A DNA stretch of 64,000 nucleotides from a virus (Duplodnaviria > Heunggongvirae > Uroviricota > Caudoviricetes). The translations under genes and the position numbers were made by a program. Below are positions 35,040 to 62,086 of the stretch, piece after piece. A model generated the notes under the pieces. It saw only the letters and a program-made list of their open reading frames with translations, did no database searches and was not told the origin of the DNA. How positions within the stretch are numbered: the stretch's first letter is position 1; the number at the start of each line of letters is the position of its first letter. The stretch is taken from the IMG/VR virus record IMGVR_UViG_3300045988_150439; one strand, written 5' to 3'.

Positions 35040-36095
35040 CTATTTGCGAGTCTTTGCCTTGCGCAACTCTTCGAGAAGCGCCAGTTCTTCTTTACTCAAC
35101 ATGACCATTTTGCCTTCTTTTTCGTCAGGCACAACGTCGATAATGTCATCTTGATTCTCATCTGGGAGGCTATATTCCGTCTCATCATTATCGATTTTTG
35201 TTGATATTTGTGCCTGGCGTAACTTTGGCCGCCTATAGTGGATGACGAAGTAGACCGAGTTTCCGCGCTTAACTTCCGTGTAATCGAGATATCCTATCTC
35301 TCGCAGCTGTTCCATAGCCTTTCTTACCGTCGCATTCTGAGTAATAGTGCGACTTGTCAGATTAAGTCTGGCGCGTAAACGGGCTAGTGATATTGGTGCC
35401 GGATCAGGCGGCAAACTTTCAATAAAAGTATAAAGCGCCTGAGCGGATTCTTTTCTTGAGAGTTCGTTTATAGCCCGGAGTTGCAGAAGAACCTTTTTGT
35501 CGAACTGGTAGAGTTCGAAAATCTTGGGATCTGCTTTCAGTTCGACCGTATCGTGCTTGACACTATATTTTGCCGTTTGCACAAGATGCGTTACGTAAAA
35601 CTCATCAGAGCCTTTGCTACGGAACGAGATGGTATTTGTGGCAATACGGCTTAGCGAACTGTCCAGGCGTTTGCGTAACTTCGCTGATGACCTGGCGGTC
35701 GGAATGCCACACAGCCTTACAAACTCAACGAACGGCAGCGTGACAGTATCGCCAACGACCTTGTGTTTGGCAAACGCGTGGATTATTCCCACCCACGTTT
35801 TAAAGTCGTTATCCATATCAAGCCGAAGGCCAGAGATCCTTATGTCTTCGTACCCTTCGGCTTTTGCCAGAGACAGCTGTTTGAGTTCAGCAGAGGCATC
35901 CATAGAGACCATTTGCCCCTTTCTTCCTCTGGATGTCGATTTCAGCGTCGGAACGAAGAGGCCCAGACGCATCAAAGCAACAGGCTGAACAGTGTTATTA
36001 GTGTTAGGAACCAACGTAACAACTTCGCCTGTCTTTTTATCTGTTTCTGAAAATGCTTCAACGATCGCTATGTTTTTATTGCCGTTTTCGCTCAT
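35040..36095 (-). CDS. repA: RepA-like iteron-binding replication initiator
   Basis: 351 aa minus-strand gene bracketed on both sides by iteron arrays with matching core sequence; assignment is by context, not by a recognised protein motif. Confidence 0.55.
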
Positions 36096-36139
36096 TCCAA
36101 ATGTCTCTTGTTATTCGACGGCTTTGGTGGCCTTTGCTG

Positions 36140-36257
36140 ATTACAGTGGATAGTAGCACTCATCACAGCGGTTATCCTACCGTCTATAGTGGTTTTTCTC
36201 CTCTCTATAGTGGTTGCTTTGCTCCCTATAGTGGATTATTCGCTCTCTATAGTGGAT
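36140..36257. repeat. origin iterons, set A (about 21-bp phasing)
   Basis: gattacagtggatag, cgtctatagtggtt, ctctctatagtggtt, ctccctatagtggatt, ctctctatagtggatat at roughly two-turn spacing. Confidence 0.6.
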
Positions 36258-36367
36258 ATCGATCATGTCTGAAGGCAGATGGCACAACGGTTTGAGGTGG
36301 GCGGGGATCTTATTGGGTCTTTATGGGTCTCTTTGGTTCTCTTTGTGATCTGAATTACTGGATCGGG

Positions 36368-36376
36368 CCTGTGGAT
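36368..36376. promoter_or_regulatory. DnaA box (tgtggataa) within the origin region
   Basis: Exact match to the reverse complement of TTATCCACA; further 8/9 matches at about 36416, 36512 and 36743; flanked by GATC clusters and an AT-rich stretch. Confidence 0.45.
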
Positions 36377-36538
36377 AAAAATCAGAGGATTTCAAGAACA
36401 GGTAACTCTACTCTTCTGTGGATATTTAAGGACATAAGAATCATGACTAAGAGTAGAGTTTAAAATATATCTATGTATATCAGTATGTTAATGAAGAATT
36501 AAGTCATTAAGTTATCCATAAAAGACAATGTGCTCTAC

Positions 36539-36640
36539 TCTCTACAGTGGATATATACAGCTCTCCAGAGTGGTTGTTTTACTCTTCATAGCGGTTATTC
36601 AGCTCTCTACAGAGGTTTCTTTGCTCTCCATAGTGGATGG
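36539..36640. repeat. origin iterons, set B (about 21-bp phasing)
   Basis: ctctctacagtggatat, ctctccagagtggttg, ctcttcatagcggtta, ctctctacagaggttt, ctctccatagtggatgg; followed by a GATC-rich stretch at 36665-36745. Confidence 0.6.
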
Positions 36641-36838
36641 CAACACCCTTTCAGACCAGTAACCGCAACGGCTAGAGGCGATCGGGGATCTCTTTGGATC
36701 TTCTATTTGATCTTACTTGGGATCTCTTATTTGGATCTATCCAGTGGATAACTGGGATAAGTAAAACAGGCAAATGCAGATTAAGGTATGCCTAATGAGT
36801 TATCGTAGCATCGGCCAATAACTACTGAAAAAACGATT

Positions 36839-52647: not shown

Positions 52648-53241
52648 ATGATTGCAGCCGAAAAAATCAAACAGCGAAAGCGCGACAACTCTCTTCGTGA
52701 CCTCTGGAGAACACCTGATTGGCTGTTTTCTGCCATTCAACGTTATCTTGGAGTGACATTTGATGTTGACGTTGCCTGCAACAAGGACAACGCAAAGCTG
52801 CCTAATTTCATAGGCATTGAGCGTGATGCTTTGAAATCTGAATGGGGACAGCCAGGTACAATTGCCTTCCTCAATCCACCCTACTCCAAAATCTCCCCCT
52901 GGATTGATGCTGCTATACGTGAGCAGGCTCGCGGAGTTACAACAGTGATGCTAATTCCTCAATCCCTCGATACAAAGTGGTATGAGCGTGCAACAGAGTA
53001 TGCGAATGAGACGATTATTCTGTCTGGTGGCCGCGTAGCGTTTGTCGAGCCTGACGTCAATTTGGGTCAGGTAGAAGTAAACATCAACCCCGGTGGCAGT
53101 ATGCTCGTTGTTTTTCGAGGATTCTGTCAGGACGCTGGGCACTCTATAAGCAAGATCCCTTTGGACGTCATGAAAAGTCTGGGAGGGTATAATCCTGCGA
53201 ATGTGATCAGGAAAAAAAGACCATCAAAGAAGGCTGCTTAG
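52648..53241 (+). CDS. DNA N6-adenine methyltransferase (phage Dam-like)
   Basis: NPPY catalytic motif (FLNPPYSKISPW) and size (197 aa) fit small phage N6A methyltransferases. Confidence 0.6.
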   Translation: MIAAEKIKQRKRDNSLRDLWRTPDWLFSAIQRYLGVTFDVDVACNKDNAKLPNFIGIERDALKSEWGQPGTIAFLNPPYSKISPWIDAAIREQARGVTTVMLIPQSLDTKWYERATEYANETIILSGGRVAFVEPDVNLGQVEVNINPGGSMLVVFRGFCQDAGHSISKIPLDVMKSLGGYNPANVIRKKRPSKKAA

Positions 53242-53262
53242 TTTGCTCTGGCGTCTGTAATT

Positions 53263-53324
53263 AGCCTGCTTCTGTATATATATAAATAACTACATATTAA
53301 TTATTAATATACGGAAGCAGGCTG
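53263..53324. repeat. second copy of the nested palindrome / hairpin seen at 2999-3053
   Basis: Arms agcctgcttctgtatatat / atatacggaagcaggct around an AT-rich loop containing tataaata; followed by gttttgt. Confidence 0.55.
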
Positions 53325-53404
53325 TTTTGTATCAGAGACTCCAGACCTGAACATCACTACAGAATCCACTAGAACCCCTTCCCAGACGCTTTAAAATCGA
53401 TTTT

Positions 53405-53659
53405 ATGAACCACTTTAAGGAAACCAACATGTCATACCCGACTAATGTCGTTGCGCTCGTAGAGAGCGATTTTCTGGCTAAGGCTCGTGAAATGATGAAA
53501 GATCGCGAGCAGGCTTTCAACTTGTACGAATGGGCAATTAAGTGCTTGCATCTTGGGGAGCATCGCGAACTTGTTGAACAGCTTTTAGGTGAGTTGATCA
53601 ACGAGGTGTTTGCCTTGAATGTTCAACTACATGGTCGAGAAAATAATCAATCGAAATGA
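53405..53659 (+). CDS. hypothetical small protein
   Basis: 84 aa ORF (alternative ATG at 53429). Confidence 0.35.
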   Translation: MNHFKETNMSYPTNVVALVESDFLAKAREMMKDREQAFNLYEWAIKCLHLGEHRELVEQLLGELINEVFALNVQLHGRENNQSK

Positions 53660-54241
53660 TAGATAAGTACAAACTATTCATAAAATGAATTGTAAGTGCT
53701 AAGATCTGATAGTTTCCAGTCGTAGACTGGAGACTCGACCTGATGGGTGGGGGTAAGCGTCACTGGCGTCAGGTTTAAAAAAGCTCACTACCAGCGTAGA
53801 ACCGGTGCCGTTTAGGTGTCGGGGAAGGGGGAACCAAAGTGAGCGGAGACAAGGGTCACTTTATGATTGTCGAGTCTGGGGTGTTTCGAGAGGTTGAATC
53901 CAGTACTCCCCTTCATAAAGTGTGGGAAGATCTCGGTTCTGGGGTGCTGTCATCCATAACTTCCCAAGTCTAAGCTGGCAGTAGACTTAGACCATAGCTT
54001 TTCAGGTTATGAAACGACCAGGTTGGTGAGGAATTTTATACTCACCTCCCTGGGAGAGTATTACCTGAAAAGACAACCTCTCACTTCGTTCGAGGTGAAC
54101 TTCACTCACTTCGTTCGTTCAGTTCAGGTTTATAAAAACCTGTTCTGGGAAGTAATTTGTTTATTTTAATAATTATTAACACGCACGCGTGTGCGCACGC
54201 GCGAGGAAAAAATCGGCGCGGCGCTTGATTCAGGAGTTTAT

Positions 54242-54835
54242 ATGACGACGAAGACACCAGCCCGATCGCAAGAAAAAACTCGCAAAAAAGCCAAAAACAA
54301 AAATTCTCCCCGCGCCAATTCCACAACGCCTGTCGTAGAGTTCAATCCCCAGCTTAAAACCGTGAAAATCTTCAGTGATGGCTCTTGCCTTAAAAATCCG
54401 GGTGGCCCGGGCGGTTACGGTATAGTTCTCCAGTATCGTGGTGAGGAACGCGAGTTCTCAGATGGTTTTCATAGCACCACCAATAACCGCATGGAGATGA
54501 TGGGGGCACTTATTGGGCTGGAGCGTTTGAAATATCCATGCAACGTTATTTTGCACTCTGATAGCCAGTATCTGAAAAACGGCATGACACAGTGGATGAA
54601 ATGGTGGAAACGCAATGGATGGGTGACTTCTGACAAAAAACCGGTAAAGAATGTTGATCTGTGGAAGCGTCTGGATGAGGCCGCAAGTCGACATAATGTT
54701 CGCTGGAAGTGGGTTAAAGGTCACGCCGGGCATCGTGAAAATGAAATATGTGATCGACTCGCGAAGATCGCAGCTTTTTCCGCAGCAGATATGCCTCACA
54801 AGAAAGATATTGGTTTTGTTTACAACAAGCAGTAA
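54242..54835 (+). CDS. rnhA: ribonuclease HI
   Basis: [55 protein letters not shown] and [13 protein letters not shown] closely match E. coli RNase HI; start set at the ATG with aggag RBS (track ORF begins at 54191). Confidence 0.85.
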
Positions 54836-54980
54836 GTAAGTGTTTACCTATCATTTTAAATCATGTATCTTATCAGCGTCAGGATGACAATGTGTCGGTA
54901 AGACACAGTTCCAGGATGGAACGAGAAAGGCGGCTGGCAATCGCCAGCCGCAACTCTTTCTGACACTGGATGGAGTCCAC

Positions 54981-55475
54981 ATGGCACGTCAAACCTATTT
55001 CACTTCTGCAACTAAACGTCCTCGTTCACTACGTCAAATTTTGGCCGAATTATTTAGCGGTCGTGTTCTGTCACGTCTTGATGAACTAGAGACTGCCGTT
55101 CGGTTGCTGAATGAACGTTTAGATAAGCAAGCGTCAGTTGTTGCGAACGTGGGGGCGATTGTTACCTCTGGTTCTTCACGCGAAGCGAAAAGTACACGGC
55201 CTTTAGTGAAGGAGAAAAACAACAAGGACAGTTCGAATGGAAAATTTTCAAAGAAAGAGGCTGAAACCAATGGCCTACGTTCTCATTATAGTTTCACTGG
55301 CGACGATAGCCGTTCCAGCCGGCCAGAGCCTTTTGATGCCGGGTTCATCCATCACCACACCTCCGTCGACGACAATTACCACCACTCCAGTAGAGCGTCC
55401 TGTCACTCTGGATGGGATGACGGTGGATGCGATACCTCAAGTTCATCCAGTTACTCAGGATCATGCTGTGACTAA
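54981..55475 (+). CDS. hypothetical protein (C-terminal part doubtful)
   Basis: N-terminal 90 aa look like a real helical protein; the C-terminal third is low-complexity and overlaps a better-supported gene in another frame. Confidence 0.3.
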   Translation: MARQTYFTSATKRPRSLRQILAELFSGRVLSRLDELETAVRLLNERLDKQASVVANVGAIVTSGSSREAKSTRPLVKEKNNKDSSNGKFSKKEAETNGLRSHYSFTGDDSRSSRPEPFDAGFIHHHTSVDDNYHHSSRASCHSGWDDGGCDTSSSSSYSGSCCD

Positions 55476-55488
55476 GGCGGTTGTATGA
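55270..55488 (+). CDS. small membrane-anchored protein
   Basis: ATG with agagg RBS; hydrophobic N-terminus MAYVLIIVSLATIAV then Thr/Pro-rich segment. Confidence 0.3.
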   Translation: MAYVLIIVSLATIAVPAGQSLLMPGSSITTPPSTTITTTPVERPVTLDGMTVDAIPQVHPVTQDHAVTKAVV

Positions 55489-55682
55489 ACTGGTTTTCAA
55501 ATCACTTTGGAAAAACTTGGCTGGCGATTCTGGCTTTCATAGCTCTCATGGCCGCCGGTTGGGTATCGAACATTGTAAAACTCGTTTGCTCTGGTGATCT
55601 CCAGTTTCAGGCTGGTATGACCTTGGCTCGTGTTGTTGGGATTTTTGTTTTTCCAGTCGGTTCGGTACTTGGTTATTTCTGA
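55485..55682 (+). CDS. small membrane protein
   Basis: 65 aa with two hydrophobic segments. Confidence 0.35.
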   Translation: MNWFSNHFGKTWLAILAFIALMAAGWVSNIVKLVCSGDLQFQAGMTLARVVGIFVFPVGSVLGYF

Positions 55683-55775
55683 CGGTTGTTAGTGCATATG
55701 CATTGACCGTCTTTTCGTAAGCAATTCATGTAACTAGAAAACAACTTGTTTTAACAAATAATAAAAGGAAAGCAC

Positions 55776-56201
55776 ATGTTAGGTTTATTCAAAAAGAAAA
55801 CTCGTAAAGCTGTTATCGAGGTCAAAAAAATGGAGAACCGAGATGCGGTTGAAGCCACCGTGTGGGGCGCGTACATGATCTCCTATGCCGATGGCACATG
55901 CGACGCAAAGGAAATTTCCATTCTTGAGAAAACAATTGCAGCTCTGCCTGCGTTTTCTCCGTTTGCTGGTGAGATTGCCCAAATGAGCGCCAATATCCGT
56001 GCTCAATACGAAGCCTCACCGCGCCGCGCTAATGCCCAGGCTTTACGTGAGCTGGCTGATGTGGCCGGGACTAATGATGCAGTAGATGTACTGTGTCTGT
56101 GCCTTGATATTGCCGACCAAGACGGTATTGGCGAACAAGAAGAGCTGGCCCTGAAAAAGATCGCACAGGCGCTTCAGTTGTCACTGGATGCTTATCTCTA
56201 A
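55776..56201 (+). CDS. TerB-like domain protein, putative
   Basis: 141 aa all-helical; segments AYMISYADGTCDAKEISILE and LCLCLDIADQDGIGEQEELALKKIA resemble the TerB/DjlA N-terminal domain pattern. Confidence 0.4.
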   Translation: MLGLFKKKTRKAVIEVKKMENRDAVEATVWGAYMISYADGTCDAKEISILEKTIAALPAFSPFAGEIAQMSANIRAQYEASPRRANAQALRELADVAGTNDAVDVLCLCLDIADQDGIGEQEELALKKIAQALQLSLDAYL

Positions 56202-56359
56202 TGCTTGAGAGATTCCGGCTTGTGACCGTCATTGCTCTTCTGGTGATGGCGGTGTTGGTGGATTTTACGGGAAAGATGATGTCTGTCATTTCTGATGGCG
56301 TCCTCATTGGTCTGGCGATCTACTTCGCTTATCCGCTAGTCCGTAAAGCAACGTGTTAA
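56201..56359 (+). CDS. small membrane protein (52 aa)
   Basis: Below the track cutoff; ATG overlaps the previous stop (TAATG); hydrophobic throughout. Confidence 0.3.
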   Translation: MLERFRLVTVIALLVMAVLVDFTGKMMSVISDGVLIGLAIYFAYPLVRKATC

Positions 56360-56360
56360 T

Positions 56361-56389
56361 GACAAGGGCCAAATGGCCCTTGTGTTTCG
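56361..56389 (+). terminator. Rho-independent terminator
   Basis: acaagggcc-aaat-ggcccttgt followed by gtttcg. Confidence 0.6.
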
Positions 56390-56498
56390 TTGACCGAAAT
56401 AGAGAGTTTGCACCTTTACGTTTAGCTTGCTCCCCTTTTATGCCACATCACAATAAAGCCAATAAGAAAACAACTTGTTTAAGCATTAGGAAAAACAC

Positions 56499-57068
56499 AT
56501 GTGCAAGAAATGCAAAGCGATAGCTGATGAACAAAACGCCTTATTCGAAGAAATGGATGCTAATGAACTGGTCAAAATGTTAGCCATTCTTCGAGGAATA
56601 GAAGACGTTTCCATATTTGAGAGAGTGGTTACAGCACTTAATTTTGAGTCCACCTTTGAAGAGCCAACTCAGGTTGTAGCTTTAGCACATCATTTCGGTG
56701 TTCATTATCTTGCTGAAAAAGAGCGCGCTGATAAGTTGCAGGCGGCTTTGGATATGGTGAGCGAGACTCAACGAACTGATGACACTAACAAGAGTGAGGC
56801 GATTATTGCCAGCAAAGATCGTGAAATTGCTGGGCTTAAATCCTCTCTAACGATGTTGATGTCTGCGTTCAATCTTATGTCTTCTCAGGCGGGTTATAAA
56901 ATGCCATCACTAAACAGTGATGATCCGATGGCCGTTCGTCAGCTTTTGGGAGCAATGGCCGACCAACTCGACGACACAAAGAGTCGGCTTGAAGACATGA
57001 TGCGTGAGTTAAGCCATCGACATAACCTCGCAACACAGCCACACAAAGCCTTTCAAAGCTCTAATTGA
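56499..57068 (+). CDS. hypothetical protein
   Basis: 189 aa; preceded by the gaaaacaacttgttt motif. Confidence 0.45.
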   Translation: MCKKCKAIADEQNALFEEMDANELVKMLAILRGIEDVSIFERVVTALNFESTFEEPTQVVALAHHFGVHYLAEKERADKLQAALDMVSETQRTDDTNKSEAIIASKDREIAGLKSSLTMLMSAFNLMSSQAGYKMPSLNSDDPMAVRQLLGAMADQLDDTKSRLEDMMRELSHRHNLATQPHKAFQSSN

Positions 57069-57123
57069 TCTGATATGGCCGCATGATCGGCCATATTGTG
57101 TTGATAAAAAACAAGGATGAAAA

Positions 57124-57405
57124 ATGGCATACGGTACAGGGATTTACAACAATAAAGGAATTAACGTTACTGGCTTCCTTACTCCTATTTTTTTTCTTGA
57201 TCGATTTACTGCGTCATCAGGCTCTAAGACGTACTCCAATCCGCCACCGGGTAAATCGCTACATGCCGTGTGGTCATTGATGCCTCTTAACAACGACAAC
57301 TACATTAATTTACCTGTTCCAACAGTTACTATTAATGGAAATACGGTTAGTTGGTCAAATTTATATACGGGGCTTGGTTCTTACATATACACATACTGGG
57401 GATAA
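57124..57405 (+). CDS. hypothetical protein (AT-rich, beta-rich)
   Basis: 93 aa with aagga RBS; Asn/Tyr/Thr/Ser-rich. Confidence 0.4.
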   Translation: MAYGTGIYNNKGINVTGFLTPIFFLDRFTASSGSKTYSNPPPGKSLHAVWSLMPLNNDNYINLPVPTVTINGNTVSWSNLYTGLGSYIYTYWG

Positions 57406-57407
57406 TT

Positions 57408-58022
57408 ATGTTCGGGATGTCAATTACACAATCAGATGGAAGTTTGTGGATGAGTCCAGAATTTACTCCGCAAAATCTGATTAATAAAGGGACAATGTCT
57501 ACATCTAAAGGTTCTGTTTTTCAAACATCAATCCCATCAAACAAATCATGCTTTTTCTTCATAAAAAGCAGTAATAAGGCGAACATGATGTTTATTCATG
57601 AGCATAGTAACGGATACAATGCTCTCAGATTGCATCAGGTAAATGGTAGCCCCGGAACAATAACAGTTTATGCTTTTTCTGATATGGTGTTACCACATTC
57701 TGGCTATGGCATTGCCATGTATAACAGCGCAGGCGCAATGGTGTATCACGGTGAGATGATGCCCCTTGATGCGAAACTTATCACTATTTCTGACCCTCAA
57801 TTTACAATAGATATGGGGTATCCATGTGCGGTAATGCCTGCTATGGTTGGGGTATATAACTATAGACGAACCGATTACGACAGACCTGTCTATGTAACAA
57901 TGACAGGTGCAACTGGAAACCAAGTATATAACGGTCAATGGTATTCCGGTAATGTCACATGGGATATTAAGAAGATTTATACAAACAAAATTCTGGTGAT
58001 AAATACCTCCAAGTATGATTAG
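57408..58022 (+). CDS. hypothetical protein (AT-rich, beta-rich)
   Basis: 204 aa from the ATG 2 bp after the previous stop; same composition as its neighbour. Confidence 0.4.
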   Translation: MFGMSITQSDGSLWMSPEFTPQNLINKGTMSTSKGSVFQTSIPSNKSCFFFIKSSNKANMMFIHEHSNGYNALRLHQVNGSPGTITVYAFSDMVLPHSGYGIAMYNSAGAMVYHGEMMPLDAKLITISDPQFTIDMGYPCAVMPAMVGVYNYRRTDYDRPVYVTMTGATGNQVYNGQWYSGNVTWDIKKIYTNKILVINTSKYD

Positions 58023-58125
58023 CCAATGCCTTTATTTGAAGGATTGCCTGTTTATTTCTATTTAGTACCTTTTCATTTTTGAAATAATTGCACCATTAAA
58101 CAAATCACTTCTTAATGGTGCAATT

Positions 58126-59811
58126 ATGAATACAGCCCTTTCCATCATCGACGATGCCAACTCAAACACTGCTATCGACTATCGGCAGGAAATGAACGTC
58201 ATCCACGAAATTGTGGCCGAGTGCGAGAAAGAGATCGCCTTCATGTATCAGGTACACGACTTCGTTTATGGCGACGAACGCCACAACATGATTAATCGCC
58301 TGCTGAGACTAAACCATCGACCAGATGAAGATCGCTCGCGTTTAAATCGAGGTTGGTTGGATAAAGTCGATCTGGAATGGGTGAAACAGAATATTTGGGC
58401 CGAGTACTGGAGGAAGGTCACGGACATGACTAACGTTTTGCTGATCATGCCAGCTTCCCGTCGAGATGAGTGGCGCGAGCAGTTTATAGAGGGCAAACAG
58501 GAAGTCATCAAAACTGACAGAACCGGCTACCAGATGAAGGTTAAAGAGTTCGTTGGTGTACCGGAGTTCAAAGCAGAAACGGTCATACCCACGATGCTTA
58601 ATTTGCTGAATGACAGGCACAAATATCTCTCTGAGCGCGTGTATGGCTTGTTTAAGGCGCTGAGTCCTGCGCACAAGACAAATAAGACAAACGGTTTCAG
58701 CGAGCGTCTGATAATCGCTGACTGCATTTCTGATTTCTGGCGGGACAGCGTTAGCGTGAACTATCGCAAAGAGGACTACATCGACGATCTGCGTGTCTTG
58801 CTTCATTTCTTCGCGCACAAAGAATTTATTACCATCAACCGCACTGCTGAGGTGCTATCAGCTGCGTATCGAGCAAACGACTGCCAGACCGGTGACTGGA
58901 TTAACGTCGATGGAAATCTGATGCGCGTGAAGATGTTCAAGAACGGCAACGTTCACTTTGAAATACATCCTGACGTGGCCTGGAAGTTGAATGAGGTGCT
59001 GGCTTACAGTATGCCTGCTGCAATCCCCGCGCCATGCCGAACTGCGCCAAAAACACGGGCACCAAAGCAGTTCGGTTTAATCCAGAAGACGATCTCCGTG
59101 CAGGTTCGCACTGCGCTTCGTGACGGGCGATTGAGCAAAGACAAAGGCGTATGGTACTTCTCTGATTCAGCTCTCCAGAAGTCGCAGGTGGAAGAGCTTG
59201 AGCGCACACTGAGCTTCATTGGCGGCGTGCAGGAGAAAAAGCACTGGCAGTTCCCGTATGACATCGGCCATACGCTAAATACGATTGTGGCTACCGGTTT
59301 AATACCGGATACAAAATCACACCAGTTCTACCCTACCCCACGCTTGATTGCTGAGTACGTTGCCAGAGCCACTGAATTGAAGCCTGGTGAGAAGCTGTTG
59401 GAGCCTCAAGCCGGACGTGGGGATCTTCTGGCCTATATTAACGCCGATCTGGAAGATGTTACCTGCATAGAAATCGCACCTCTCTTCGCTGATATCCTGC
59501 GTGGAAAAGGGTATACGAACACGATTTGCTGCGACTTCATAAAGTGGTCTGAGGACAACGCAGGTTATCAGTTCGACAAAATCGTTATGAACCCGCCGTA
59601 CTCGCTTGGTCGTCATAGAGAGCACACGCTGGCTGCGCTGGGGCATCTGAAAGTCGGCGGGCGTCTTGTAGCAGTATTGCCGGGCACTGCGCCAATACTG
59701 GACTGGATGACGATGGATAATTACGTTTATGCCAGAGGGAAGTCGTTTACCAACGAGTTTGAAGACACAGGGATCACAGTCAGCGTATACGTTTTCAAAC
59801 GCGTTAAATGA
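58126..59811 (+). CDS. N6-adenine DNA methyltransferase with a large N-terminal domain of unknown function
   Basis: C-terminal class I SAM-MTase with motif I LEPQAGRGDL and motif IV NPPYS; about 380 aa N-terminal extension unassigned. Confidence 0.55.
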   Translation: MNTALSIIDDANSNTAIDYRQEMNVIHEIVAECEKEIAFMYQVHDFVYGDERHNMINRLLRLNHRPDEDRSRLNRGWLDKVDLEWVKQNIWAEYWRKVTDMTNVLLIMPASRRDEWREQFIEGKQEVIKTDRTGYQMKVKEFVGVPEFKAETVIPTMLNLLNDRHKYLSERVYGLFKALSPAHKTNKTNGFSERLIIADCISDFWRDSVSVNYRKEDYIDDLRVLLHFFAHKEFITINRTAEVLSAAYRANDCQTGDWINVDGNLMRVKMFKNGNVHFEIHPDVAWKLNEVLAYSMPAAIPAPCRTAPKTRAPKQFGLIQKTISVQVRTALRDGRLSKDKGVWYFSDSALQKSQVEELERTLSFIGGVQEKKHWQFPYDIGHTLNTIVATGLIPDTKSHQFYPTPRLIAEYVARATELKPGEKLLEPQAGRGDLLAYINADLEDVTCIEIAPLFADILRGKGYTNTICCDFIKWSEDNAGYQFDKIVMNPPYSLGRHREHTLAALGHLKVGGRLVAVLPGTAPILDWMTMDNYVYARGKSFTNEFEDTGITVSVYVFKRVK

Positions 59812-60577: not shown

Positions 60578-60957
60578 TGTTTGGCATTGATGCACAGCGT
60601 ATAGCAGCTTTTGCAAAAAGCCCTCTTGATAATCCCTTGTCTCGTAGTGAGCAAATGGAGCTGGCAAGGCTTTTTCTTCACATTCAAAAACAGGCAGACG
60701 TTTTCAATAACATGCCTGATCAACCTATTCTGGATGGTCACATCCAGATGGTCATTAACAGTCATGAGAAAGGCTGGGCTGCAATCGTCCCCTGCACAAT
60801 TACATACAAGTTGGCGAAAGAGGTTCAAGAGTTTCGAAAAGTCAGCGTCGAATCAGAGTCTACCAAAGCCGCAATAAACACTCTTATTCGCATGGGGTTC
60901 ACATGGGACGGTGGAGCTTACTGGCAAGCACCTCAACCCATTTTATACGGAAATTAG
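60577..60957 (+). CDS. hypothetical protein
   Basis: 126 aa ORF overlapping the previous stop; hairpin ggccat-aagcc-atggcc follows at 60990-61006. Confidence 0.4.
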   Translation: MFGIDAQRIAAFAKSPLDNPLSRSEQMELARLFLHIQKQADVFNNMPDQPILDGHIQMVINSHEKGWAAIVPCTITYKLAKEVQEFRKVSVESESTKAAINTLIRMGFTWDGGAYWQAPQPILYGN

Positions 60958-61774
60958 GCTCTACAAATCCTTCTGCATGAATAAATAAAGGCCATAAGCC
61001 ATGGCCTTAAATAAATTGTTTTCTGCCTTTACTTGTTTGTGAAAATAACCACAATTAGAAAACAACGGAGTTAAGAATGTCTCGCATTTCCGAAGCACAT
61101 ATGTTCGCCGCTGGCGTTCAATAGCGGAAACCGCCATGTACAGGGTCAAACAGTTGTTCGGAGGTTCACTGACGCAGCGTGATTATGACGGTCAGGTTGC
61201 AGAGGCACTGGCTATGGCGCGCCCTGAACAAAATGACAAAGGCAGGTATGCCAGAAAGCGTTCGAGTTGCCTGAAAACCCAACCGGATACAGAGAGGTTC
61301 ACCCGAAATCTGATTTATACAATAAAGCCTCAGAGTGGTCTGGGATGCTTCTTTCGCCACGCCATCCACATTCTGTATTCTGTCCTTATGTTTCCTTCAG
61401 AAGTTACTTTATTGTACTTTGTGGTCGGTGGAGAGGCTAAAACGCTTTCGAGCGTTTCACCTGCATCGAATCGCGCGTACAGCTTGTAATCGGCGGCATT
61501 CGGGTTTGTCGGCTCACTTTTACCATGACTCATTTTTATCATCCTTTGCGATAAGAGCTTAACTCTGCCAGACGCCGGCTGTTGACGCCATAAACGAATT
61601 TTACGTCTAGTGGTAAAGCACCTTAGGGAATCGACACCTCAGGGTTTCAAATCCTAATACATAGTGAAGGTCTTACTCAATACTCGCCTAAACGGAATTA
61701 TTCTTCATCACCGGCAGGGGCTGCTGTGCAGTCGAAGATATTGAGCTTGTACTGTATGCATAAGGTAAAACGCT

Positions 61775-62086
61775 ATGGGCTTCCCTTCTTCTGTGGCGGA
61801 TAGCCATCACCGTGAGGGAATATTGCAGGGTGCATTGCTAGTGGTCGATTCCTCACTTACCCCGGTTGATGGTTCTCTGCTTGTGTGCGCTATGGAGGGG
61901 GAATATCGCGTAAAAAGATACCGGAAGTATCCACGTCAGCATCTGGAGGATTTAAGAACCGGTAAGAAGGAAGCATTGCCAAAGGATGACGATGGATGCA
62001 CGGGCAGCAATGCCGTGTTTGGTGTGATCACTCACATTATCAACGACGCAAGAAGTGGCGAGTTTGATGATTGTCCCGTGATGTAG
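61775..62086 (+). pseudogene. UmuD/LexA-like S24 peptidase remnant (catalytic segment missing)
   Basis: GFPSSVAD, LLVVDSSLTPVDGSLLVCAMEGEYRVKRY and VFGVITHIIN align to UmuD as recalled, but the region containing the active-site Ser motif is absent. Confidence 0.4.

Follow-up and report, generated by a model that had tools for sequence, protein, structure and literature searches.

A 64,000-nucleotide stretch of tailed-phage sequence (IMG/VR record IMGVR_UViG_3300045988_150439, Caudoviricetes; hereafter the window) carries two + strand genes whose products are supported as enzymes of the adenine-N6 methyltransferase type by profile hidden Markov models, motifs and fold. One encodes a 197-residue protein of the phage Dam family (52648..53241) and the other a 561-residue protein (58126..59811) in which a DUF4942 domain precedes a minimal methyltransferase core. 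Judged by its sequence, the window is part of an SSU5/pHCM2-like phage-plasmid. Our joint best explanation, to which we give a probability of about 0.5, is that these are two orphan DNA N6-adenine methyltransferases serving anti-restriction and that, in the larger one, DUF4942 positions the catalytic core. Under this proposal both orphan enzymes would methylate the element's own DNA, the small one at GATC, while in the large one DUF4942 and the linker that follows it would engage the element's DNA or a DNA-bound factor and so position the core; methylation of adenines by the core would then make the DNA less sensitive to host restriction on entry into, or replication in, a new host. A sequence-only reading of this region had reported two adenine methyltransferase genes, a small Dam-like one with NPPY and one for a 561-residue protein with motif I and NPPY at its C-terminus; both open reading frames lie exactly where it placed them, and the assignments are borne out by the results that follow.

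The catalytic core of the large protein occupies residues 396-561 (59311..59808, + strand). Three motifs run through it: a motif X-like QFYPTP at residues 400-405 (59323..59340), which aligns with 'ETPPEV' of M.TaqI; motif I, LEPQAGRG, which binds S-adenosylmethionine, at residues 425-432 (59398..59421); and the catalytic motif IV, NPPY, at residues 489-492 (59590..59601). All three are invariant or nearly so in 22 homologues reaching down to 33% identity and in 87 cluster representatives (about 30%), with E426 and G430 of motif I and N489 and P491 of motif IV invariant among the 87, and their order within the Rossmann fold, X - I - IV, is that of gamma-type N6-adenine methyltransferases. When the full-length AlphaFold model (predicted local distance difference test, pLDDT, 83.6; predicted template modelling score, pTM, 0.70) was compared with known structures by Foldseek, it matched only Rossmann-fold methyltransferases, TrmN, M.TaqI and the M subunit of StySJI among them, over about 170-200 residues and with E of about 1e-7. 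A profile of 87 homologues found M.TaqI as its best solved sequence (5.6e-6), followed by proteins of the KsgA/Erm/METTL5 type, all of them adenine-N6 methyltransferases, and 67 of the 87 match Pfam MTS. The whole protein matches phrog_6263 ('DNA methyltransferase') over its full length at 5e-299. The core also matches the PADLOC models for Mad2 and Type II methylases, PHROG families of very large phage proteins (1259-3925 residues; 1e-8 to 1e-50) and the 'DarB-like antirestriction protein' of Serratia phage Parlo; one of these families, phrog_9133, of 1259-residue phage proteins, is matched by residues 324-560 at 1e-50.

The motif order, NPPY and the Rossmann fold are shared with M.TaqI and the EcoKI/TaqI-like gamma enzymes, M.TaqI being the best relative of solved structure. 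The large protein differs from them in its extra 395 N-terminal residues, which show no relation to any solved structure, in a sub-threshold score against the Pfam family N6_Mtase, and in the lack of a C-terminal target-recognition domain. The chain ends 69 residues past NPPY and this tail consists, in the predicted structure, of core beta-strands, so that a recognition domain of the M.TaqI type is absent; nor was an S-subunit-like neighbour found. The EcoKI/TaqI-like methylase class has been described in DarB-like polyvalent proteins (Iyer et al. 2017, PMC5512222), and the core here is of the same class. However, the large protein is small by comparison, lacks both the superfamily 2 helicase of the DarB-like methylase-helicase dyad and LPD36, and is encoded among early and replication genes. 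Direct homology of the core to DarB of phage P1 was rejected, BLASTP being not significant, and the resemblance is at the level of motifs. Kinship of either enzyme with M.EcoGIX and M.BceJIII was likewise rejected. Those are single-strand-specific orphan adenine methylases of plasmid leading regions for which anti-restriction on entry has been demonstrated (PMC7736820), and they share with the two proteins described here the condition of orphan adenine methylases of mobile elements; but they belong to a different, beta-class family with DPPY (PMC7736820), whereas both of ours have NPPY and another motif order, and no sequence relationship was found.

The N-terminal part of the large protein falls into three segments. 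Residues 1-85 (58126..58380) form an acidic (isoelectric point, pI, 4.9), helical and poorly conserved N-terminus, with helices at residues 19-48 and 52-62 and pLDDT below 50 for residues 1-18 in the AlphaFold model. The conserved DUF4942 (YdiA-like) core follows at about residues 86-310 by alignment (58381..59055), and a small alpha/beta linker subdomain, delimited by the secondary structure of the models, occupies residues 311-395 (59056..59310) and includes a variable stretch at 331-360. The sequence-only reading had seen no obvious assignment for the N-terminal 380 or so residues. The domain prediction it suggested for residues 1-380 does return one, a match to Pfam DUF4942 (PF13708) at residues 140-295 with 74.1 bits (gathering cut-off 25), yet DUF4942 is itself a family of unknown function, and to that extent the statement stands. 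The accompanying proposal, that this domain may set target specificity or have a second activity, survives only in amended form: the domain is unlike a classic variable target-recognition domain and has the character of an autonomous, strongly conserved module.

Conservation averages 1.27 bits per column in residues 1-85, 2.22 in the DUF4942 core and 2.27 in the catalytic core, and the peaks within DUF4942, at residues 166-195 and 256-300, reach the level of motifs I and IV. Its signature residues are W95, L179-S180-x-x-H183-x-T185-N186, D221-L-R223, W258, D262-G263, H277 and N289; those invariant in the alignment of 87 include W95, L179, S180, H183, T185, N186, W258, H277 and N289. Modelled separately, residues 1-395 gave pLDDT 83.3 and pTM 0.74, the H-x-T-N loop being the sole low-confidence stretch inside the domain. 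No solved structural relative of DUF4942 was found, and Foldseek with residues 1-395 against viral models gave one unnamed 247-residue match only. A role as a DNA mimic was rejected on the ground that the DUF4942 core is mildly basic (pI 8.7). The idea that the N-terminal half contains a nuclease was rejected as well, there being no family hit, no nuclease fold and no conserved PD-(D/E)xK pattern. Searches of the literature on DUF4942 and on the methylases of SSU5 and pHCM2 found no functional study.

The combination of DUF4942 with a methyltransferase is widespread. Residues 1-395, searched against 1.8 billion representatives, gave 609 clusters; among the best 150 listed, nearly all are 500-590 residues long with the domain at the N-terminus, and every one of the 87 sampled members carries DUF4942, a methyltransferase Pfam hit being recognisable in 67. 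Together these counts indicate that the 'fusion' is the standard architecture of a large family and not peculiar to this element. There are 367 homologues of the large protein in SSU5-like elements and prophages, and its exact sequence is already public, in a 90%-identity cluster of 1384 members named 'DUF4942 domain-containing protein'. Hosts of DUF4942-methyltransferases include SSU5-like elements, lambdoid prophages and IncHI2 plasmids, as well as phages of Aeromonas, Pseudomonas, Marinomonas and Vibrio. In prophages of Variovorax and of an Enterobacterales bacterium (loci L004:8001-10936 and L006:4948-12320) such genes belong to lambdoid early regions and have one or two further orphan methylases (N6_N4_Mtase, C5 DNA_methylase) as immediate neighbours, without a recognisable nuclease. 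The large enzyme thus belongs to a catalogued family, already in NCBI and uncharacterised; we found no member with a known target, a structure or a functional paper.

Both halves of the large protein also occur as separate genes in the leading regions of conjugative plasmids. With the DUF4942 core, tblastn matched at least 5000 plasmids, 3897 of them conjugative. In IncI-gamma/K and IncL (pOXA-48-like) plasmids the match is a stand-alone leading-region protein of about 282-286 residues, YdiA (loci L010:6722-7570 and L008:6710-7570), which is homologous to residues 82-303 of the large protein (hhalign probability 99.3%, E 1.2e-20) and is the form best fitted by Pfam DUF4942, with 173 bits. The leading region around it also has ardA, psiB/psiA, ssb and a KlcA-like gene, and in IncI-gamma/K plasmids YdiA is the gene closest to nikA/oriT on its strand. 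The supplement of Samuel et al. (2024) lists the family as YdiA, 'Uncharacterized; DUF4942; Methyltransferase', ranking it 24th by size, with 2171 members, among the families enriched in leading regions, at a median position of 1 from oriT on the transcribed strand (PMC11541004). DUF4942 proteins have been reported, too, in CP4-type islands beside KlcA, RadC and CbtA/CbeA genes (PMC6980539). The YdiA proteins of IncI, IncK and IncL/M plasmids have the motifs LS..x.TN, DDL, GT.H and PD...LN in common with the large protein. They differ in being about 282 residues long without the methyltransferase part and in lying nearest oriT on conjugative plasmids, whereas here the module forms one protein with a catalytic core and is carried by a phage-plasmid that is not conjugative; nor does the stand-alone form conserve H183 and H281. 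The gene for the large protein is not adjacent to an oriT: the element is non-mobilizable, and the gene sits among phage genes of early or replication type. Because DUF4942 occurs alone as YdiA and is conserved as strongly as the catalytic core, it appears to behave as an autonomous module rather than as a classic variable target-recognition domain.

The catalytic core alone likewise matched at least 5000 plasmids. In IncF leading regions it corresponds to a stand-alone 187-residue protein (WP_001311069.1), annotated as a 'class I SAM-dependent methyltransferase', which lies near ssb and psiB and directly downstream of a DUF3560/YdbA gene (IncF locus L011:3718-5689). The whole core, residues 398-557, is homologous to this protein, with all motifs in common (hhalign probability 99.8%, E 1e-28); the difference is that the IncF protein stands alone beside a DUF3560 gene without relation to DUF4942. 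Homology between DUF3560 and DUF4942 was considered and rejected, the comparison giving none, and in DUF3560/YdbA the same catalytic core may have a second partner module, unrelated to the first. In the IncI/K leading region, in which YdiA is present, a gamma-type core was not found.

There is nothing out of the ordinary about the small enzyme, an orphan methylase of a kind already known. It exceeds the curated thresholds of both Pfam PF05869 'Dam' (130.8 bits, E 5e-38; cut-off 28.1) and TIGR01712 phage_N6A_met (113.6 bits; cut-off 97.05), and matches phrog_111 'DNA methyltransferase' at 5e-65 and the PADLOC orphan methyltransferase model at 1e-12. Its motif IV, read from the translation, is the NPPY of residues 76-79 (52873..52884, + strand), set in the sequence FLNPPYS. 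By tblastn it is 39% identical to Dam of Stx-converting (Shiga toxin-converting) and lambdoid phages and 27-30% identical to Dam of T1-like phages; its exact sequence is already public, in a 90%-identity cluster of 818 members named 'phage N-6-adenine-methyltransferase'. A sequence search for a relative of solved structure found none. Small size, NPPY and the lack of a target-recognition domain are further likenesses to the T1/VT2 phage Dam family, to which the enzyme belongs. GATC is its most probable target, as it is 39% identical to Dam of the Stx phages, in which M.EcoVT2Dam has GATC as its reported target (PMC6602927). The identity to characterised GATC enzymes is nevertheless only about 27-39%, which is why we infer GATC for it, and unlike them its gene lies on a phage-plasmid with a GATC-rich plasmid origin. 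A likeness to the non-specific methylase Hia5 was rejected, Hia5 being of the Dam/DpnM-like alpha class and not of PF05869 (PMC3299994).

Around both genes, searches with Pfam, PHROGs and PADLOC gave no hit to a nuclease partner or defence gene, small hypothetical open reading frames not being excluded; the neighbours encode an exonuclease, RNase HI, a TerB-like protein and hypothetical proteins, and on this basis we treat both genes as orphans. Distant homologues of the large enzyme in prophage early regions lie directly beside other orphan methylases (N6_N4, C5 and Dam-type), and the homologue of an IncHI2 plasmid lies next to a Dam-family gene; such stacking of methylases is the pattern expected of elements that accumulate protective methylases. 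The composition of the window indicates that restriction pressure is real, as 6-bp palindromes are strongly avoided. Over positions 1-64000, 15 of the 58 testable palindromes (26%) fall below an observed/expected ratio of 0.3, a depletion found in only 0.2% of non-palindromic hexamers (Mann-Whitney p = 9e-15), and AGCGCT, CTCGAG, GAGCTC, GCATGC, GGATCC, GGCGCC and TCCGGA are absent altogether. CTAG is depleted as well (observed/expected 0.38), and GATC is not avoided (276 observed, 320 expected; 0.86). Given the methylase-type proteins, the lack of a restriction partner, the orphan-methylase neighbours of homologues and the avoidance of palindromes, anti-restriction by self-methylation is a plausible and reasonable reading.

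The window also contains a plasmid replication region (35040-36760), with a Rep3-family initiator gene on the minus strand (35040-36095) followed by two origin-like modules. Each has about five iterons at 21-bp spacing (36159-36257 and 36540-36640), a block of GGATCT-type repeats and a DnaA-box-like site (36370-36378 and 36742-36751). Seven GATC sites, the densest GATC cluster in the window, lie within about 70 bp in the second module; degenerate GGGTCT versions occur in the first. Because of this cluster in a plasmid origin, replication control may be a function of the Dam-like enzyme, either in addition to anti-restriction or in its place; P1 oriR and oriC depend on Dam methylation.

Several observations weigh against the mechanism that we favour. 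As both modules stand alone elsewhere, the core may not need DUF4942, and DUF4942 may act outside methylation; moreover, DUF4942 is conserved as strongly as the catalytic core, unlike a domain that reads sequence and diversifies along with specificity. The Pfam family N6_Mtase (PF02384) scores the C-terminal 211 residues at 17.5 bits, under its gathering cut-off of 20.4, and matches just 9 of the 87 homologues at E <= 0.01, for which reason we call the core TaqI-like and not a member of that family. Many of the strongly avoided palindromes contain adenine, for example GAGCTC, GCATGC, AAGCTT, GAATTC and GGATCC, and such avoidance would be needless if adenines were methylated broadly and without specificity throughout the element; E. 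coli has its own Dam, so that a second GATC methylase would bring no obvious anti-restriction gain; and the searchable literature holds no methylation data for either protein or for any DUF4942-methyltransferase. On the other side, coupling of the two halves is favoured by the fixed architecture, by a core that has no recognition domain and by a confident full-length model. These same features bear on the most serious of the alternatives, in which the large protein is bivalent: DUF4942/YdiA would be an independent establishment or anti-defence effector fused to a self-sufficient core of low specificity, and the two halves would act separately. The wide conservation of both halves as separate genes, YdiA in at least several thousand conjugative plasmids and the core in IncF, agrees with this, as do the IncI/K leading region with YdiA and no gamma-type core, the high conservation of DUF4942 where variability might be looked for, and the known recurrence of fused anti-defence domains in phages and plasmids (PMC5512222). 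Yet hundreds of clusters keep one domain order and one partner, unlike the shuffled polyvalent proteins, the pTM of 0.70 is compatible with a defined domain arrangement, the core has no recognition domain of its own, and a mildly basic DUF4942 is not a DNA mimic; on balance we think separate action of the halves rather doubtful.

Positioning of the core by DUF4942, in the service of anti-restriction, has also to be set against readings in which the enzymes do something other than protect DNA. They might exert the element's own epigenetic control, over replication, the timing of segregation, packaging or expression, with the Dam-like enzyme keeping the origin methylated. The position of the densest GATC cluster, beside iterons, a DnaA-box-like site and the Rep3 gene, would suit such a role, as would the lack of GATC avoidance and the place of both genes among those for nucleotide metabolism and replication. 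The Dam of an E. coli host would already methylate the origin sites, however, the large enzyme has no link to any regulatory site, and homologues clustered with several orphan methylases fit protection against multiple restriction systems better, all of which makes control without protection unlikely. That the 561-residue protein methylates RNA (rRNA or tRNA) or protein instead of DNA seems very improbable. Enzymes with NPPY do include methylases of tRNA, rRNA and protein; the top Foldseek match is the tRNA m6A enzyme TrmN, with Trm11, RlmKL and KsgA-type proteins close behind, and the NCBIfam and PDB profile matches include Erm, KsgA and METTL5. But the best sequence relative with a structure is a DNA enzyme, M.TaqI, PADLOC and PHROG point to DNA methylases, to Mad2 and to large phage proteins that carry a DNA methylase annotation, and the genes are found in phage early regions and plasmid leading regions and next to DNA methylases. 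Hardly credible is a single-chain restriction-modification enzyme of Type IIG-like kind with a nuclease in its N-terminal half, as might be suggested by homologues in Pseudomonas phages Dolphis and Jeremy and Aeromonas phage ST4 that are annotated 'RE endonuclease': the family searches gave no nuclease hit, the alignments show no conserved pattern of the PD-(D/E)xK type, and thousands of plasmids and prophages stably maintain the gene with no separate methylase to protect them.

The assignment of the window to an SSU5/pHCM2-like phage-plasmid follows from sequence identity and collinearity. The 8 kb around both genes is 99.2% identical to non-mobilizable E. coli plasmids of about 110 kb, 97.6% identical to Escherichia phage Cyrano and about 83% identical to Salmonella phage SSU5, and the first 25 kb of the window is collinear with the Cyrano and SSU5 phages too. 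Both methyltransferase genes lie within a long block of nucleotide-metabolism and replication-type genes that includes nrdAB, thyX, dhfr and genes for a 3'-5' exonuclease, RNase HI, and TerB/TciA-like and Ead/Ea22-like proteins. The RNase HI gene (54191-54835; NCBIfam equivalog, 219.6 bits) lies between the two; at the N-terminus its longest open reading frame is extended by about 55 residues with a high content of Lys, Arg, Thr and Ser, and the Cyrano record has a shorter start. At 55776-56359 stand a TerB-family gene and a DUF3927 gene, annotated in Cyrano as P1 TciA-like and TciB-like, with a strong terminator-like hairpin after them (56362-56383). A scan of 51.5-60.8 kb placed terminator-like hairpins downstream of rnhA and of the TciB-like gene, and promoter-like sites in the same interval were rarer than in shuffled sequences. 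Further downstream, at 60900-61800, there is an unusual junction between an Eaa-like gene and a gene for a HumD-family S24 peptidase (61775-62086). The entire 0.9-kb junction is present in just 2 of 72,556 plasmid records; relatives such as NZ_CP103696 have instead about 3.7 kb of Ead/Ea22-type genes at this place, and an open reading frame within the junction (61136-61489) had no match in an NCBIfam search.

Orphan methyltransferases are a known kind of gene in phages and plasmids (PMC11541004, PMC7736820). They give phages and plasmids one of the chief ways around restriction, and resistance genes, CTX-M among them, are spread through Enterobacteriaceae by SSU5-like phage-plasmids. The importance of the large protein lies in its N-terminal half, which is the YdiA module; the YdiA family has thousands of members, takes the first place after oriT on major resistance plasmids, and is without a known function or a solved structure. 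A tentative but quite possible interpretation is that DUF4942/YdiA is a structurally new DNA-engaging or anti-defence module and that the fusion reveals its natural partner activity, adenine methylation by a core that lacks a recognition domain. If so, the large protein would offer a direct experimental handle on YdiA, which is among the largest of the leading-region families still uncharacterised and whose gene is the first into the recipient when IncI, IncK and IncL/M plasmids (the last including those of the pOXA-48 type) are transferred, and a new way of targeting a DNA methyltransferase would be defined. Establishing the target of the large enzyme, and whether DUF4942 is required for it, would yield the first functional assignment for the YdiA family.

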